Origin: a virus
Lineage: Duplodnaviria; Heunggongvirae; Uroviricota; Caudoviricetes
Direction: 5' to 3' (one strand)
Length of the DNA stretch: 64,000 bases
Virus record (IMG/VR): IMGVR_UViG_2721755711_000002
Below are positions 22,747 through 64,000 of the stretch, one piece after another; the stretch's first letter is position 1; each line of letters starts with the position of its first letter. A program made the translations under genes and the position numbers. The notes beneath the pieces are model-generated. The model ran no database searches and was not told the DNA's origin. It saw only the letters and a program-made list of their open reading frames with translations.

Positions 22747-22878
22747 TCCCCGAACAATGTCGGGAGGGCGACGAATACAACACCCGAAAGGGGAATAAGT
22801 CCGCGGCCTCACTGAGCCGTTTCGAACCTCCCGGCTCCACTCCGATAGTGGAAATTCGAAAAAATCAGTGAGGTCGTT

Positions 22879-57678: not shown

Positions 57679-58644
57679 TTACCCCCTGAACCCTGGTGGA
57701 ATTTCGGTGTCCGGTTCAGAAATGTGATTCACACAACGCTGCGCGGGACCACGCCACAGTCGAATAACCAGCTCATCCCATTTTTCACGGAGTTTTTCCG
57801 GGCTCTTGATGTTTTTTATCCAGAACGGATCCCGTTGTGCCCGACTGAACATTTCGCAAATTTGTCTGTGACTTCTTCCATCCAGCATCCGCATTGTGCG
57901 CACATCATTGGCCCACGTAGTCCAGTTGGGCTCTTTCGGTCGCGTGATCTCACCATCATCGCTCGCAGCCTGCTCGTACAGGTTTAAAACCCGCCCCCAG
58001 ATCCACTGCGCACACGTCAAATCCTCCCGGGTTCCCCACTGGCGTTTTTTTACACTGAACACAGCTGCGTCAGGATGGCGGGTTAAAAACTCCTGTTCAG
58101 CCGTCTGCTCGTCCGGTTGCGAAGCGTCCGGACAAGAGAGTTTTTTATTCTCTGTAGTAATCTCTGTTGTATTCTCTGTAGGATCATCGGGCCATTTTGA
58201 CCTGATGACATTGGGTCGTTTTGAACCAATGGAGTGTGTCATTTTGGCATCTTCCATCGTGTCATTTTGACCTGATGGAGCGGCGCATTTTGACCTGATG
58301 GATTCGCTCAATTTGCCATCATCTAAAAGCTTGCTCTCGTAATTGATCGTGTAGAAATTAGTCATATCGCGCTTTGATTTATTGAGCTTTTCGCAACGCA
58401 AAAGCCCCAGCGTTTTCAGACTTGCAAATGCACGTTTTAACGTTGACTCTGACCAGAACGGGAACTGTTCCAGCCATTGTTCCGTTGTGTTATAAATCCA
58501 GCGAACACCATCACATTCCATGCCGGAACTGGTATCTCTCAACCAGTAATGCAGCTGCTGCAACACGATGGCTTCGTTCAGACCAATTTTCATCGCCAGC
58601 TGCGTGTTTATAACCAGCGGGCGTTCAGCAAAAAGGAGCTTCAT
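57679..58644 (-). CDS. replication initiation protein, lambda O-like
   Basis: N-terminal MKLLFAERPLVINTQLAMKIGLNEAIVLQQLHYW; ori iterons lie inside the gene. Confidence 0.65.
   Translation of the reverse strand: MKLLFAERPLVINTQLAMKIGLNEAIVLQQLHYWLRDTSSGMECDGVRWIYNTTEQWLEQFPFWSESTLKRAFASLKTLGLLRCEKLNKSKRDMTNFYTINYESKLLDDGKLSESIRSKCAAPSGQNDTMEDAKMTHSIGSKRPNVIRSKWPDDPTENTTEITTENKKLSCPDASQPDEQTAEQEFLTRHPDAAVFSVKKRQWGTREDLTCAQWIWGRVLNLYEQAASDDGEITRPKEPNWTTWANDVRTMRMLDGRSHRQICEMFSRAQRDPFWIKNIKSPEKLREKWDELVIRLWRGPAQRCVNHISEPDTEIPPGFRG
58130..58325. other. origin of replication: iteron array (about 23-bp period) plus AT-rich flank
   Basis: CATTTTGACCTGATG at 58193, 58263, 58286; degenerate copies at 58216, 58240, 58309; TTCTCTGTAG repeats at 58148-58180. 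Confidence 0.7.
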
Positions 58645-58664
58645 CCCACCCCCATAACACGTTA

Positions 58665-59090
58665 TCAATGCGCGACCACGGCATTTCCCGCCGGGCCGCC
58701 ACGATTCATCTGATTGAAACCAGCAATCGCCACTGCGACAAAATCATCAGCGTCTCTCACCAGTCGTTCCCGCGTCTCCACCAGTTCCCGAAACCAGGCT
58801 GAACTGTGGCTGCGCATTCGGGCCACCAGCAGAGGTGGCATTGCTTTTTCGATCGCTGGTAACAACGCCTGAATTTTTTTAACCGCATCAGGAGTGTCTT
58901 TCTCCACCCAGCGGAAAATTTTCTGGGTGTTACGGCCCAGGGCTTCCGGATGGCTGTCGTCGTACAATTCCGGGAACGTCATACCGAGTTCGAAATACGC
59001 TTTGGTAATTTTCGCAGCCGGTACTTTCTCGCCGTCTGGATGCGCCCAGGCATTCATCGCCATGCGGATGTGTTCATGCTTGATTTTCAT
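58665..59090 (-). CDS. YdaT-like protein (CII position)
   Basis: 141 aa downstream of Cro-like gene. Confidence 0.45.
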   Translation of the reverse strand: MKIKHEHIRMAMNAWAHPDGEKVPAAKITKAYFELGMTFPELYDDSHPEALGRNTQKIFRWVEKDTPDAVKKIQALLPAIEKAMPPLLVARMRSHSSAWFRELVETRERLVRDADDFVAVAIAGFNQMNRGGPAGNAVVAH

Positions 59091-59346
59091 GAATCAACTC
59101 CGGCGCATTTGATGTGTTAACCTTACATCCAACAGGTAAACCGTCGGTTGGGTTAGGGTATTTATCAGGGCGCAATTCATGCGGAGTCACTCCCCAGCCA
59201 AGCGCCTCACATGCTGGAATGACCTCCTCCGCAGGAACTCGTTTTTTAAACCACCCACTTATAGTTTGTGGAGTTTTACCAAGACGACGCCCTAACTCTG
59301 ATTGGCTCATTATCGACAGGATTTTCACTTGAGTACTTTTTTGCAT
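59074..59346 (-). CDS. Cro/YdaS-like HTH regulator
   Basis: MQKSTQVKILSIMSQSELGRRLGKTPQTISGW after GGAGGG RBS; divergent from repressor. Confidence 0.65.
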   Translation of the reverse strand: MQKSTQVKILSIMSQSELGRRLGKTPQTISGWFKKRVPAEEVIPACEALGWGVTPHELRPDKYPNPTDGLPVGCKVNTSNAPELIHENQA

Positions 59347-59378
59347 GTTTCCCTCCAAACTTTACGATGGCACCGATA

Positions 59379-59418
59379 ATTACAAATTTAATTTTAATTT
59401 TCAACTTCTATTTGTAAT
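59379..59418. promoter_or_regulatory. candidate operator: inverted 9-mers ATTACAAAT / ATTTGTAAT in divergent promoter region
   Basis: 59379-59387 and 59410-59418 between cro-like and repressor genes. Confidence 0.45.
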
Positions 59419-59472
59419 GCCACTTATCAATTTTTTCTGTAGGATTGCAGGATTAGTTTTCGAGGGGTGGTG

Positions 59473-59865
59473 ATGATCTTTGTAAAACGCCTTCAGCAGG
59501 TGTTGCAGGAATTGAATATAAACCAGTCAGAGCTGGGAAGACGTCTTGGTGTAAAACCCCAATCCGTGCAAGGTTGGTTGAAAGGCGTGATGCCAAGAAT
59601 GGATAAATTGGAAAAATTAGCAGAGCTCTCACAACATCCCGTCCATTGGTTCTTTATGGAAGAAGAAACTCTCGGCGATAAGATGGCTGTATCCAGTAAT
59701 GACAACCAACCGCAACTTACAGAACAACAACGAAAAATCATATCGCTTTTAGATGAGTTACCTCAAAGCGACGCAGAGCAGATCATTCGGGATATGGAGC
59801 AAAAACGCGATTTCTATAAACGCAAACTTGAAGAGTTACTGCGGCAGAAAAACAAAACTGCCTGA
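59473..59865 (+). CDS. prophage repressor, DicA/RacR-like HTH
   Basis: MIFVKRLQQVLQELNINQSELGRRLGVKPQSVQGW after GAGGGG RBS. Confidence 0.65.
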   Translation: MIFVKRLQQVLQELNINQSELGRRLGVKPQSVQGWLKGVMPRMDKLEKLAELSQHPVHWFFMEEETLGDKMAVSSNDNQPQLTEQQRKIISLLDELPQSDAEQIIRDMEQKRDFYKRKLEELLRQKNKTA

Positions 59866-59911
59866 TGCGTTCCTTTTCTGGAACGAGCATCAGGCAAATG
59901 ACTAACAGATT

Positions 59912-60271
59912 TTATAATCCCACCAGGCTTTCCAAGGGGATACCAAATTGATTATGAAGACGGCGAATCATTGGTAACGTAAGGCTTCTGGTGCCATTCA
60001 ACACCTCGTAAACCCGATTTTTTTTTCCAATTGCGGGTTCCAAATCTTTCACGGTCAGCCCCTGCTGTTCCATGCGAAATCTTATAGCTTCAATTGGGGA
60101 TGGTGGCTCAATGGGATAATGTTTTTTTTCATATTCCGCTATTAGCAAACACATCACCTCAAAGAAATCCCCCTCAGGCGTGTTAATTTCCGGCTCATTG
60201 TCGAACATGGGCTCAACAGCACGCAACGCGGCTTCATAATCTTGCTCTGTACGAATAGGTTTGATGTTCAT
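59912..60271 (-). CDS. higA: HigA-like antitoxin (XRE HTH)
   Basis: 119 aa downstream of HigB-like toxin. Confidence 0.65.
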   Translation of the reverse strand: MNIKPIRTEQDYEAALRAVEPMFDNEPEINTPEGDFFEVMCLLIAEYEKKHYPIEPPSPIEAIRFRMEQQGLTVKDLEPAIGKKNRVYEVLNGTRSLTLPMIRRLHNQFGIPLESLVGL

Positions 60272-60273
60272 GC

Positions 60274-60576
60274 TTACTCCAGTTCAATGGTATCAGCATC
60301 AATGGCATCGTATTCCTTGTGGTTTCCGATGAATTTAACAAATACCCATCCTCGCTGATACGCAATTGCAACAATTAAACGGTAATGATTACCTTTTATG
60401 TTGAATACCACGCGCCGGTTTTTCAATATACTGGCCGTTCGGTATTGTGCCTTAATGTCTGCCGGGCTTTTCCAGTCAGCCTTTGCTGCCTCATCCACCC
60501 ATGCCCTTAGCGGTTGTTCTGCATCGGGATTCTCCGCCCAAAAATCCCTAAGCGTTTTAACTGAGATGATCTTCAT
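60274..60576 (-). CDS. higB: HigB-like toxin (RelE/ParE superfamily)
   Basis: 100 aa; ..NIKGNHYRLIVAIAYQRGWVFVKFIGNHKEYD typical of HigB. Confidence 0.7.
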   Translation of the reverse strand: MKIISVKTLRDFWAENPDAEQPLRAWVDEAAKADWKSPADIKAQYRTASILKNRRVVFNIKGNHYRLIVAIAYQRGWVFVKFIGNHKEYDAIDADTIELE

Positions 60577-60586
60577 AACTGTATGG

Positions 60587-60605
60587 TAGTCCCATTTCGG
60601 GACTA
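60587..60605. promoter_or_regulatory. palindromic operator candidate upstream of higB
   Basis: TAGTCCC-ATTTC-GGGACTA 11 nt upstream of higB start. Confidence 0.5.
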
Positions 60606-60851
60606 ATGCAATCGGCCTCAGCTACAAATTTAATGATAAATATATTGACCAATTAAATTTTAATTTGTAGATTATACTCACCAACCAACTCCCCGCCCCA
60701 CAGAACGCAGGGCAATACTTCGAGTTACCAGGCAGTGGTCAGGGGTTAAGTAGCCAGCCCGAGGCGTAAGAACATGACGGCAGGGTTCAACTTTAACTAT
60801 GCAGCAGGTTTTTGTTCCGCCACCCCGGCGTTAAAGGGAAATGAGGTCAGC

Positions 60852-61004
60852 ATGGATACTATCGATCTTGGCAACAACAAATCTCTGGTATACGGCGTGT
60901 TTCCAAACCAGGACGGTACGTTCACCGCGATGACGTATACCAAAAGCAAAACGTTTAAAACCGAAGCTGGCGCGCGTCGCTGGTTAGCCAGAAATACTGA
61001 CTGA
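60852..61004 (+). CDS. ydfA: YdfA-like small protein
   Basis: MDTIDLGNNKSLVYGVFPNQDGTFTAMTYTKSKTFKTEAGARRWLARNTD. Confidence 0.6.
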   Translation: MDTIDLGNNKSLVYGVFPNQDGTFTAMTYTKSKTFKTEAGARRWLARNTD

Positions 61005-61015
61005 TGAGGTTAACG

Positions 61016-61651
61016 ATGGAATTTAAAGACTTACCGCTATCAATCCAGGAGATTGCAGCACACACACTACGTCAACATCTGAACGAAGCTATGGCTGAAT
61101 CTGCAAAGAAAGAAACCATTGATAACATGGCTCGTAATGTGCACGATGCGTTTACCGGATTGTATTTCTGTGCGTCTGTAAATAAACACGACCCAGAGAG
61201 TGTGGCAAAGAAAATTGCAGAAACGACAGTGCAAAACATCAATACGAAACAAACCGAAGACGAAATTGACCAGCCTGCCAGTGAACAAAAGAAAGAAAAA
61301 TCGCCATATGCGGGGAACATGTTTGTTTATGACAAACTTATCCGAATTCGTGGCGAAATTCCGACTGAATACCTGGCAAAAATTCACCAGGCATTACTTA
61401 AAAATCTGGAAACGGAAGTATTTGATGGCAACACCAACGGCTCCTTCGTGGTGTCAGCCCTCACAAAAGAGTGGGATACAGATAATCGCCGGAATGTTGC
61501 TACATGGTTATTCAGCAACAAAGCTGCTGCCCTGGAAGCTGCGGCCTGTATTTGCGACCTGCTAAGGACAGACCGCAAATACAACCTGGATGTGTATAGC
61601 TATATTTATGCTGAACACTATCCGCTCTGGATTGACTGGTTTAAAGGGTAA
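61016..61651 (+). CDS. hypothetical protein (211 aa)
   Basis: ATG 61016 after GAGG; occupies ydfB/ydfC position. Confidence 0.45.
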   Translation: MEFKDLPLSIQEIAAHTLRQHLNEAMAESAKKETIDNMARNVHDAFTGLYFCASVNKHDPESVAKKIAETTVQNINTKQTEDEIDQPASEQKKEKSPYAGNMFVYDKLIRIRGEIPTEYLAKIHQALLKNLETEVFDGNTNGSFVVSALTKEWDTDNRRNVATWLFSNKAAALEAAACICDLLRTDRKYNLDVYSYIYAEHYPLWIDWFKG

Positions 61652-61813
61652 CACCTGCGGGACCGAGCCGACCAGCACCACGATTATTTTATCCTCCATT
61701 AAGGGGTGAATTAAAAATGGAGACCAACACGCTGCTACGTGTGGTCGTGCGCCGGACACGGATAACCTTCCGGCATGCTCTTTAACAATCTGGATATCCA
61801 CAACAGCAATAAC

Positions 61814-62332
61814 CTACGGATTGCTGCTCAATGCTCTACCTATCTCTTCTTCAGATGGGGGCGGTATATAGTCATCATTGCGTTCAAATTTAAAGCGCGA
61901 ATCACATTTCAGGCATTTAGAAATATGGAACTTATCATGCTCACCAATTTCAACAGGTTGAAGTATTGCTATTACACCATGCTGATAGCAATTGGGACAG
62001 GCATAGTAAAAACATGTGTCTTCTTCGTCGAGGCTGTTCCTGAAAGCATAGACAAAATGCCCAAAACCAGTTTTGTGTATCGTATAGCATTCAAGTTTTC
62101 GATTACGCTCGTCAATTTCATGACATTTTTGCTTAAGCAAGAGTATTTCCTCGTACTGAAGCGCGAGCGTTTTCGCTAGCTCTGCGTTCTGTATTTGTAA
62201 GTCTGCCAGTTGGCGACGCATTTCGTAGACAGCCTTTTCACGTTCAGATTGGCTTTTTGCATCAAGTATTACCTGTAATAAATCAATCGAGACTTTAATT
62301 GCCGTTATTGATGAAGTTATTCCAGATAGCAT
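61814..62332 (-). CDS. coiled-coil protein with C-terminal Cys4 zinc-ribbon-like motif
   Basis: 173 aa; CPNC..(20)..CLKC; AT-rich; convergent with 61016-61651. Confidence 0.45.
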   Translation of the reverse strand: MLSGITSSITAIKVSIDLLQVILDAKSQSEREKAVYEMRRQLADLQIQNAELAKTLALQYEEILLLKQKCHEIDERNRKLECYTIHKTGFGHFVYAFRNSLDEEDTCFYYACPNCYQHGVIAILQPVEIGEHDKFHISKCLKCDSRFKFERNDDYIPPPSEEEIGRALSSNP

Positions 62333-62635
62333 TCTTAACTCTCTTTGTTGTTGGGGTATCCGGATTATACAAATTTCTTGTCGTTGGGGAATGACGGAAA
62401 CCACCTCGCCTGACGTGGTTAAAAGCAGGCACACAACGCGAAAGCGCACGGCGAAGGTTTCTTTTCCTTAGAAGGCTTGTCGTTAGATTTCTTCGACCGT
62501 GCACTTCCGGTTGTGGCAATCCGCGAAATGGCGCGGCGGTAAGTATGGCGGGTTATCCTTACCCCCATTGTGGCACCGGGTTGGCAGGTTGACCATACGC
62601 TTAAGTGACAACCCCGCTACAACACTCCATGTTGA

Positions 62636-62694
62636 TTTGTACCTTTGGCGGCATCAGTTTCATTGCTGGCTGATGTCCGCCCTTTTTAAAGTGA
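62636..62694 (+). ncRNA. dicF: DicF-like small RNA
   Basis: TTTGGCGGCATCAGTTT..CTGATGTCCGCCCTTTTT closely resembles DicF as recalled; upstream of dicB homologue. Confidence 0.6.
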
Positions 62695-62867
62695 ATTTTG
62701 TGATGCGGTGAATGCGGCTCAGCGCACGCGGAACAGTTAAAAAGCGATTAGTTCCCCCGTATCGGGTGTTTATGGGTTCCCTGTATCCGGCGTTAATTGT
62801 TAACTGGTTAACGTCACCTGGAGGCACCAGGCACCGCATCACAAAATTCATTGTTGAGGACGCGATA

Positions 62868-63056
62868 ATGGAAACGTTATTACTCAATTCCACTACGCCT
62901 GAAACTCGTTTTGAAATTGGCGTTATCACTGGCGATAAAACTTTTATTGAGGATGCCATTAACCAGATAAAGCATGAGCCGGATTCATTAAATAAGGTTT
63001 GCATTGTTTCAATGATGGCCCGTTCACGCCTGATGCAAAAAGGATACTGGCAATGA
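62868..63056 (+). CDS. dicB: DicB-like cell division inhibitor
   Basis: METLLLNSTTPETRFEIGVITGDKTFIEDAINQIKHEPDSLNKVCIVSMMARSRLMQKGYWQ. Confidence 0.7.
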   Translation: METLLLNSTTPETRFEIGVITGDKTFIEDAINQIKHEPDSLNKVCIVSMMARSRLMQKGYWQ

Positions 63057-63256
63057 ATACCACATTTGCACTTGTTCTGACGGTTTTTCTTGTTTCCGGT
63101 GAACCAGTTGACATGGTTACTGGCGTATACAGCTCAATGAAAGAATGCATGGCTGCCGCAGATGAACAGAAAATTCCCGGTAACTGTTATCCGGTCGATA
63201 AAGTTATTCGCATGGATAATAACGAAGTCCCGGCAGGACTTAAAACAGCACCGTAA
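63053..63256 (+). CDS. ydfD: YdfD-like small membrane protein
   Basis: MNTTFALVLTVFLVSGEPVDM.. ; ATGA overlap with dicB stop. Confidence 0.5.
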   Translation: MNTTFALVLTVFLVSGEPVDMVTGVYSSMKECMAAADEQKIPGNCYPVDKVIRMDNNEVPAGLKTAP

Positions 63257-63332
63257 TTAATATCCGGTTTCATTTTTATATGTCAGAAATGGCAGGGATT
63301 TGTTCACCCTAAAAATAGTTACGAGGTTTATC

Positions 63333-64000
63333 AATGAGCGCTGATAAAGAAGAAATTGCACTATATTACGAAGCCAAAAATGACAAAGTCAGAAAACGCC
63401 TTGGGATTAAAGGCGGTTTTTACTGGCGCACAGCAAAAAAATTATCGGTTGCAATATCACGCGGTGTTGTCGCAATGGACGATGCCGGATTTGACGAAGA
63501 GGATTTTAAAAAACCTGTTCGCGTCCATTTACCCATTGTGAATGACCTTCCTCCGGAAGGCGTGTTTGATACCGAATTCTGCAATCGATACGAAAAAGGC
63601 GGGGAAGATGGTATAACAATGGTATTTATTGAGACATCTCACTCTGCGCAGGACAAACCAGCCAGCACTGACAATACCAACGTCAACGGCGAAGACATGA
63701 CGGAGATTGAGGAGAACATGCTCCTGCCGGTTTCAGGTCAGATTCTGCCTGTTCGATGGCTGGCACAGCACGGCAGCGAAAAACCGATCACACACGTTTC
63801 GCGGGACGAACTGCGCGCATTACATAACGCACAGGATGAAAAACTTCCCGCCGTTACCGCTCTGGCCATCTCAAATAAAGCAGCGCAACTCGAACCGCTG
63901 GAAATTCGCGATCTCCACAAACTGGTTCGTGACACGGACAAAGTTTTCCCTAATCCTGGTAATTCAGACCTGGGACTGATGACTGCTTTTTTCGAAGCAT
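63333..64000 (+). CDS. hypothetical protein (ydfE position), 3' end beyond window
   Basis: hand translation from ATG 63333 is open to base 64000; absent from ORF track because no stop is reached. Confidence 0.5.

Follow-up and report, generated by a model that had tools for sequence, protein, structure and literature searches.

The window analysed here, a 64,000-nt stretch of viral DNA, contains a Qin-type dicB operon. Pfam searches and a comparison with the K-12 locus recovered HTH_3, DUF1391, DicB, DUF1482 and Exonuc_VIII domains in this order, and the Qin-type succession of repressor, ydfA-like gene, DicF, dicB, ydfD-like gene and exonuclease VIII is present in the window. DicF is a model prophage sRNA, and DicB, like KilR, is a toxic inhibitor of cell division. 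The features of the operon that concern us are:

59467-59865: HTH repressor gene, dicA-like (Pfam HTH_3)
59912-60576, minus strand: HigB toxin gene and HigA-like HTH antitoxin gene (Pfam; HigB 113.7 bits)
62634-62688, plus strand: DicF-like sRNA, with a terminator hairpin at 62647-62681 and a U tract at 62683-62687 (Rfam DicF match 62634-62682)
62856-62860, plus strand: dicB Shine-Dalgarno sequence GAGGA, with the ATG at 62868-62870
62868-63056, plus strand: dicB, 62 aa, cell-division inhibitor (Pfam DicB PF05358, 99.8 bits; PHROG 1251; annotated as dicB in matching E. coli genomes)

The HigB/HigA pair is inserted after the dicA-like repressor gene, ahead of the DUF1391 (ydfA-like) gene. Pfam gave no match for two ORFs of this region: one of 215 aa at 61004-61651 (plus strand) and one of 211 aa at 61814-62449 (minus strand), the latter containing CxxC pairs and lying antisense within the dicB operon, directly upstream of the DicF-like RNA. 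Elsewhere in the window, Rfam matches at gathering level were recovered for the sok antitoxin RNA (54159-54333, minus strand, 113.5 bits) sRNA-Xcc1 (22759-22843, plus strand, 72.4 bits) and a tRNA (48329-48400, minus strand).

A DicF-like sequence ending in a stem and a T tract had been described here in the first-pass annotation, in agreement with the hairpin at 62647-62681 and the run of T at 62683-62687; folding and terminator prediction both place this hairpin and U tract in the operon upstream of dicB. The Rfam DicF model (RF00039) matches 62634-62682 with 38.7 bits (E 6.6e-6) against 76.7 bits for K-12 dicF, and as the window's score lies under the gathering score of 48, "DicF-like" is the right wording. 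The score is low because the 5' part of the RNA (62634-62646), where DicF carries the seed that pairs with ftsZ and other target mRNAs, has diverged from K-12 DicF and is 8 nt shorter in the alignment; judging from this divergence, the target range of the RNA may differ from that of K-12 DicF. Promoter prediction found no promoter-like site on the plus strand between the DicF-like RNA and dicB, and dicB therefore depends on read-through RNA.

The gap between the DicF-like terminator and dicB is filled by a leader of about 163 nt, in which a long helix, P1, closes four further helices, P2-P5, and a pseudoknot candidate:

62690-62710, plus strand: 5' arm of P1 (AGUGAAUUUUGUGAUGCGGUG), with a predicted RNase III cut after U62701 and an invariant UUU at 62697-62699
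62714-62729, plus strand: P2 hairpin (GCGGC...GC.CGC), with no two-sided change in the leader subfamily, standing in for the CCCCC/GGGG hairpin of STnc100
62730-62788, plus strand: region of P3, a 3-bp helix (62730-62732 / 62786-62788) around the 5' strand of the pseudoknot candidate and a variable insert (62741-62785)
62789-62815, plus strand: P4 hairpin (GGCGUUAA / UUAACGUC, 62789-62796 / 62808-62815), with both GTTAAC sites inside and the 3' strand of the pseudoknot candidate in its loop
62817-62831, plus strand: P5 hairpin CCUGG-AGGCA-CCAGG (62817-62821 / 62827-62831), in the family signature CACCNGGAGGCACCNGGCAC
62832-62852, plus strand: 3' arm of P1 (CACCGCAUCACAAAAUUCAUU), with a predicted RNase III cut between C62842 and A62843 and an invariant AAA at 62843-62845

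A repeat search recovered a perfect 19-nt inverted repeat, 62692-62710 / 62832-62850, with 100% complementary arms and 121 nt between them. With the flanking pairs, a G62691·U62851 wobble and A62690-U62852, the P1 helix comprises 21 bp (62690-62710 / 62832-62852). The 19-mer is present once per strand in the 64-kb window, where about 0.02 matches are expected, and two matches were seen in none of 100 shuffles even with 3 mismatches allowed. The repeat had earlier been given as an exact 20-bp reverse complement, GTGAATTTTGTGATGCGGTG, with its left arm at 62688-62707. It is real, but the left arm lies 3 nt further along, at 62691-62710, and 19 of the pairs are perfect, the twentieth being G62691 opposite T62851, which is a G·U in RNA. 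From the end of the 3' arm it is 4 nt to the Shine-Dalgarno sequence and 16 nt to the dicB ATG (62868), where the original description had about 20 nt.

P1 is a helix at the RNA level that is both conserved and covarying. In the MFE and centroid folds of 261-nt (z -5.8) and 501-nt (z -4.6) transcripts the arms are paired in one long stem, which closes a multi-branch domain in the predicted folds, and the K-12 orthologue folds likewise. Megablast matched the 301-nt region in 4630 of 5426 complete E. coli genomes, and the identity was mostly 80-90%. The earlier proposal had made its own standing depend on the occurrence of the repeat in other dicF loci, and it is present there, K-12 included. 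We gathered relatives by the 3' signature CACCNGGAGGCACCNGGCAC in genome contigs, of which more than 120 contain it, and by the 5' signature GGTGAATGCGGCTNNGCGC in viral contigs; the covariation set consisted of 36 distinct long-stem relatives with 26 distinct arm pairs, which were aligned. This alignment showed two-sided changes in 13 of the 21 P1 pairs, with 97% of the cells paired in the 36 relatives. The observed percentage paired, number of covarying pairs and covariation score were each reached by none of 500 shuffles, pairing fell to 32-42% when the 3' partner was shifted by 1-3 columns, and RNAalifold independently recovered the same 21 pairs. Across the 36 relatives the P1 cells contain 59 G·U or U·G combinations against 6 A·C or C·A, an excess that is expected only if the RNA is read from the plus strand. 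The pairing of the arms as RNA, as first envisaged, is hence predicted by folding and further supported by covariation and this G·U excess.

The K-12 stem differs from that of the window by two C-to-U changes, one in each arm, and each of them yields a wobble pair. Other relatives (L016, L003, L023, L066, L086 and L166) keep a helix length of about 19-22 bp in arms of unrelated sequence, such as AAGCAGGUUUUAAGGUGUGGUG, which occurs in Lelliottia, or CAGGCUUUGCAAUACGGUG and ACUGACUUUGCAGUGUGGUG from other genera. The centre of P1 is an exception within the aligned set: the UUU/AAA at 62697-62699 / 62843-62845 is invariant in 36 of 36 relatives, whereas the flanking pairs covary freely. On the strength of this alignment, the triplet would constitute a sequence-specific requirement inside the helix, adjoining the predicted RNase III cuts.

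The enclosed segment, originally given as roughly 125 nt, is 121 nt long and is no spacer: it forms a conserved multi-helix domain with an apparent relationship to STnc100. In this domain, 1) P3 shows A-U to C-G covariation in RNAalifold (20 versus 11 sequences). 2) P4 has two-sided changes in 6 of its 8 pairs, and RNAalifold yields the same hairpin. 3) P5 has a U-A pair replaced by G-C in 10 of the 36 sequences. 4) CAGUUAA (62734-62740) could pair with UUAACUG (62800-62806), its complement in the loop of P4, and the two strands change together in the wider family (AAGCCAG/CUGGCUU, ACUGGAUA/UAUCCAGU, GGCAA/UUGCC and GAACUGAUA/UGUCAGUUC). Complementarity of at least 6 nt was found in 48% of the cognate strand combinations versus 10% of the non-cognate ones, using a purpose-written script with a crude choice of loop. 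The pseudoknot is in our assessment a well-supported candidate, not a proven structure. Both of the GTTAAC sites that had been pointed out between the arms are there (62799-62804 and 62807-62812), but they are not mere palindromes: because the CAGUUAA/UUAACUG complementarity covaries family-wide, they are best explained as the strand of the candidate pseudoknot and the 3' strand of the P4 hairpin.

The Rfam STnc100 model (RF02076) aligns end to end with 62684-62887 (model positions 1-206) at 35.3 bits (E 4.8e-5), which is below its gathering score of 47, and its consensus structure has the same long-range helix. Other copies score 34.4 (K-12), 43.8 (Rac-SA53) and 43.0 bits (P7), and bona fide STnc100 copies (GGUGAAUCCCCC...GGGG) score 48-138 bits and have a P1 of 6-10 bp. 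The window displays the GGUG/CACC closing helix, the P4-type hairpin and the CCNGG-AGGCA-CCNGG hairpin typical of STnc100; the CCCCC...GGGG hairpin following GGUGAAU is absent, with GCGGCUNNGCGCACGCGG in its place, where cmscan marks non-canonical pairs. At E<=1, DicF and STnc100 were the only Rfam families recovered in 58000-64000 apart from two chance snoRNA matches, and the other families considered, including C4, put-like RNAs and ribozymes, gave no match at this threshold. By its sequence and alignment to the model, the core enclosed by P1 is related to STnc100/PasD, a family of prophage sRNAs, but has diverged from it. PasD is experimentally Hfq-dependent and STnc100 is reported to bind Hfq, and both are prophage sRNAs of undescribed function (PMC8550237; bioRxiv 10.64898/2026.05.13.724894; PMC12711010). 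Our literature search found no paper linking STnc100/PasD to dicB or kilR leaders. The window copy does not have the layout of a free-standing STnc100 gene, as neither a terminator between P1 and dicB nor a promoter-like site ahead of P1 was predicted. More generally, a terminator follows none of 14 long-P1 leaders versus 30 of 81 STnc100-type elements.

The wider family displays further arrangements. Bona fide STnc100 copies often alternate with tRNA genes, as in several prophage tRNA arrays (L097, 3717-5512; L109, 4825-5908; L008, 5491-5933), and P7 (L122, 1705-3435) carries a copy with a short P1 in the tRNA-ban operon, just upstream of terB. This interleaving, which appears to be absent from the literature searched, suggests a link of the STnc100 element with tRNA-array transcripts. 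A frequent form, present at L006 and 21 similar loci (e.g. L162, L170, L207 and L223), has a leader-type (GCGGCU) core with a P1 of only 9 bp, next to which comes a GC-rich terminator-like hairpin (GGCGGTACCAGC...GCTGGTACCGC). From its sequence this type resembles the dicB/kilR leader core turned into a free-standing sRNA.

Leaders of the window's type (GGUGAAUGCGGCU) with a long P1 are followed by a small ORF with a Shine-Dalgarno sequence, whose start lies 36-57 nt from where the 3' arm begins. These ORFs encode DicB, KilR and several small proteins that fall into PHROGs of undescribed function or into none; the generalization that each long-P1 leader precedes a known division inhibitor did not hold, as only DicB and KilR are so annotated. 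In Rac-type prophages a DicF-like sRNA is followed by the leader and then by kilR. In the Rac prophage of MG1655 (L246, 1418101-1419100, minus strand) this sRNA is annotated as KilS (b4833; PMC8175672), the Rac counterpart of DicF with the same type of terminator; KilS lies at 1418405-1418502 and kilR at 1418008-1418229, and the P5 signature of the leader between them has GACAC in place of GGCAC. The literature searched held no description of the Rac leader itself. A "kilR-sieB" site listed at 1418510 by Gordon 2017 was considered as part of its 3' arm, but it lies just upstream of the KilS 5' end and is no evidence for P1. In an N-dependent Stx phage the leader stands ahead of the kil gene.

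RNase III processing had been offered as one possible purpose of the pairing, and this idea fits the data on the K-12 orthologue, namely a 72-nt DicF, as known from later citations, and rnc-dependent coverage of the spacer at 1649470. An RNase III processing site between dicF and dicB in the K-12 Qin prophage goes back to Faubladier, Cam and Bouché 1990, also cited in PMC2777011. As this work is cited in PMC5069750 and PMC9438474, RNase III makes a DicF of 72 nt whose 3' end is 19 nt past that of the terminated form. With K-12 dicF at 1649382-1649434, the end of the 72-nt form falls at 1649453, which is nucleotide 12 of the 21-nt 5' arm (1649442-1649462), to within a few nt, given the secondary citations. 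In Table S1 of Gordon 2017 (PMC5371410), the position 1649470 (dicF-dicB), flagged as a known site, has 26 reads in the rnc deletion against 0 in the wild type, a signal of low read counts and low resolution from unstranded data. A point against is PMC10448788, where the only role given to RNase III is to generate the 5' end of a 190-nt species, upstream of DicF. The valley of the enzyme takes up dsRNA of about 22 bp, and its cuts in the two strands leave 2-nt 3' overhangs (PMC6212723). P1, with 21 consecutive pairs, offers the near-uninterrupted dsRNA of about 20-22 bp required of a substrate. The pairs lying between the cuts, at the positions that we infer for these, are G62700-C62842 and U62701-A62841. 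They would conform to the rule that both be paired and that a G-C or C-G be among them, yet their equivalents in L016 are both A-U.

We therefore consider it likely, by analogy with K-12, that P1, the closing stem of a structured leader, is cut by RNase III, which would part DicF, the core and the dicB mRNA from one another. The leader would be made only upon read-through of the DicF-like terminator, in an operon transcript under the dicA-like repressor. RNase III would then make a staggered double cut in the middle of P1, after U62701 in the 5' arm, as placed from the end of the 72-nt K-12 DicF in secondary citations, and between C62842 and A62843 in the 3' arm, as placed by the rule of 2-nt 3' overhangs. 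The predicted products are: 1) a DicF-like RNA with a 3' extension up to ...AAUUUUGU, which corresponds to the 72-nt DicF in K-12; 2) a core of about 141 nt with the pseudoknot, still held together by 9 bp of P1; and 3) a dicB mRNA with a 5' monophosphate and an essentially unstructured leader of 25 nt. In calculated folds, the 141-nt core with its 9 bp of P1 still folds (-55 kcal/mol, z -3.6), and the processed dicB leader (62843-62900) has no significant structure (z -0.57). The 9-bp remnant has the P1 length of free-standing family members. We found no report in the literature of an excised core RNA accumulating. The exact cut positions, the cleavage of the window copy and the effects on DicB and DicF output are what we infer by this analogy.

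Alternatively, the long P1 might be a folding clamp and no more, letting the STnc100-like domain fold alone in a polycistronic mRNA or shielding the neighbouring RNA, with RNase III cleavage incidental or absent. Free-standing members keep the same core with a P1 of 6-10 bp, so the length of P1 could serve merely to clamp the fold, and a long P1 is found specifically where the element sits between another RNA and an ORF. However, P1 is almost identical in K-12, where the RNase III-dependent end, as reported in secondary citations, lies inside it, and a clamp alone would need neither a helix of substrate length nor an invariant centre; we consider this explanation unlikely, while granting it some weight. 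The first-pass annotation had also raised translational control of dicB, in which the stem or the adjacent DicF 3' region would hide or expose the ribosome-binding site and thereby determine how much of the toxic protein is made. For the Shine-Dalgarno sequence, the calculated probability of being unpaired is 0.23-0.34 in the unprocessed RNA and 0.48 in the processed one, and for the AUG it goes up from 0.04-0.14 to 0.22; moreover, long-P1 leaders are always followed at 36-57 nt by the start codon of a small ORF that has a good Shine-Dalgarno sequence, and two of these ORFs are known division inhibitors. Against this, the stem stops 4 nt upstream of the Shine-Dalgarno sequence and excludes it, and the differences in predicted accessibility are small and within the noise of the calculation. 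That the U tract might sequester the Shine-Dalgarno sequence was likewise considered and set aside, as this weak 4-bp pairing with GAGG is present in the MFE fold but missing from the centroid. With the stem ending short of the Shine-Dalgarno sequence and only a modest shift in accessibility, the proposal is left unsupported, and we hold it to be improbable.

The other two explanations dispense with a structured RNA leader. One is that the repeat acts in DNA, be it as a cruciform or as a palindrome for protein binding or recombination, and the perfect 19-bp inverted repeat and the GTTAAC palindromes between its arms could speak for this. Yet the arms are 121 bp apart, substitutions keep the RNA paired through G·U ten times more often than they give A·C, and four further helices and the pseudoknot candidate covary as well, with the GTTAAC sites accounted for by P4 and a pseudoknot strand; the chance of a DNA-level role is very slight. 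The other is that the leader is coding and constitutes the N-terminal part of a 114-aa protein (62712-63056) in frame with dicB, as an in-frame ATG at 62712 opens an ORF through it and one RefSeq genome annotates a "hypothetical protein" there. Taken modulo 3, the leader lengths of the relatives fall evenly on all three residues, which argues that this ORF is not coding; in addition, the ATG is inside the invariant GGUGAAUGCGGCU motif, which reads GGUGAAUCCCCC in STnc100-type members, and RefSeq dicB has 62 aa in nearly all genomes. We give practically no credence to the coding explanation, and the annotated protein across the leader is probably an artefact.

Given that the RNase III cleavage of P1 draws its support from the K-12 orthologue, what was first proposed is largely known for the dicB operon already: P1 matches the RNase III site reported for E. 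coli K-12 in 1990, as later papers cite it. The 1990 site is now tied to a specific covarying 21-bp helix. With respect to the literature searched, the covariation-backed helix, the STnc100-like pseudoknotted core and the reuse of the leader before unrelated small prophage genes including kilR appear to be new. The family link, the pseudoknot and the association with kil genes are modest additions, and, like the interleaving with tRNA genes, they would matter if the core RNA proved to have a function of its own. The partition of the read-through transcript decides the amount of each product, that is, of DicF and of DicB or KilR. We also entertain, as a tentative and rather doubtful extension, that the spacer encodes yet another product, the third, of the operons of dicB and kilR. 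This would be an RNA of about 141 nt with a pseudoknot, from an enlarged STnc100/PasD superfamily, excised by RNase III via a P1 of substrate length. Excision by RNase III would in this case replace the promoter and terminator that free-standing copies appear to have. Such a superfamily would occur in Enterobacterales prophages before small host-targeting genes (dicB, kilR), in tRNA arrays and downstream of stx2, and its strict core (GGUGAAU, the GGAGGCACC hairpin and the pseudoknot) would point to a common partner or activity.

Among known systems, the K-12 locus is the closest to the window: the element has the orthologous position, the P1 arms differ only by the two C-to-U wobbles, P4, P5 and the ribosome-binding site are identical, and the stem is predicted there too. 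The two differ in the DicF part, which has diverged in the window (38.7 versus 76.7 bits), and in the variable insert, which is 11 nt longer in the window. The KilS-kilR module of Rac likewise combines a terminated DicF-like sRNA, a leader with a long P1 (with one bulged A) and a small gene for an FtsZ inhibitor; unlike in the window, the downstream gene encodes KilR (PHROG 294), which has no sequence relation to DicB. Like the window, STnc100 and PasD have the GGUG/CACC helix, the GGUGAAU junction, a hairpin of P4 type and the CACCNGGAGGCACCNGGCAC hairpin, and in both types the strands of the candidate pseudoknot change in concert. However, their P2 is CCCCC...GGGG instead of GCGGC...CGC and their P1 has 6-10 bp instead of 21 bp, and they are located in late regions or beside tRNA genes. 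P1 can also be likened, on established knowledge, to the processing stems of rRNA precursors. In contrast to these, the window encloses a domain of about 120-140 nt without known function, and the product downstream is the mRNA of a toxic small protein. Common to P1 and the 16S and 23S precursor stems is a helix of about 20 bp flanking a structured RNA; in the rRNA precursors a double cut, with the 2-nt 3' overhangs that RNase III leaves (PMC6212723), frees the enclosed RNA and separates the cistrons.
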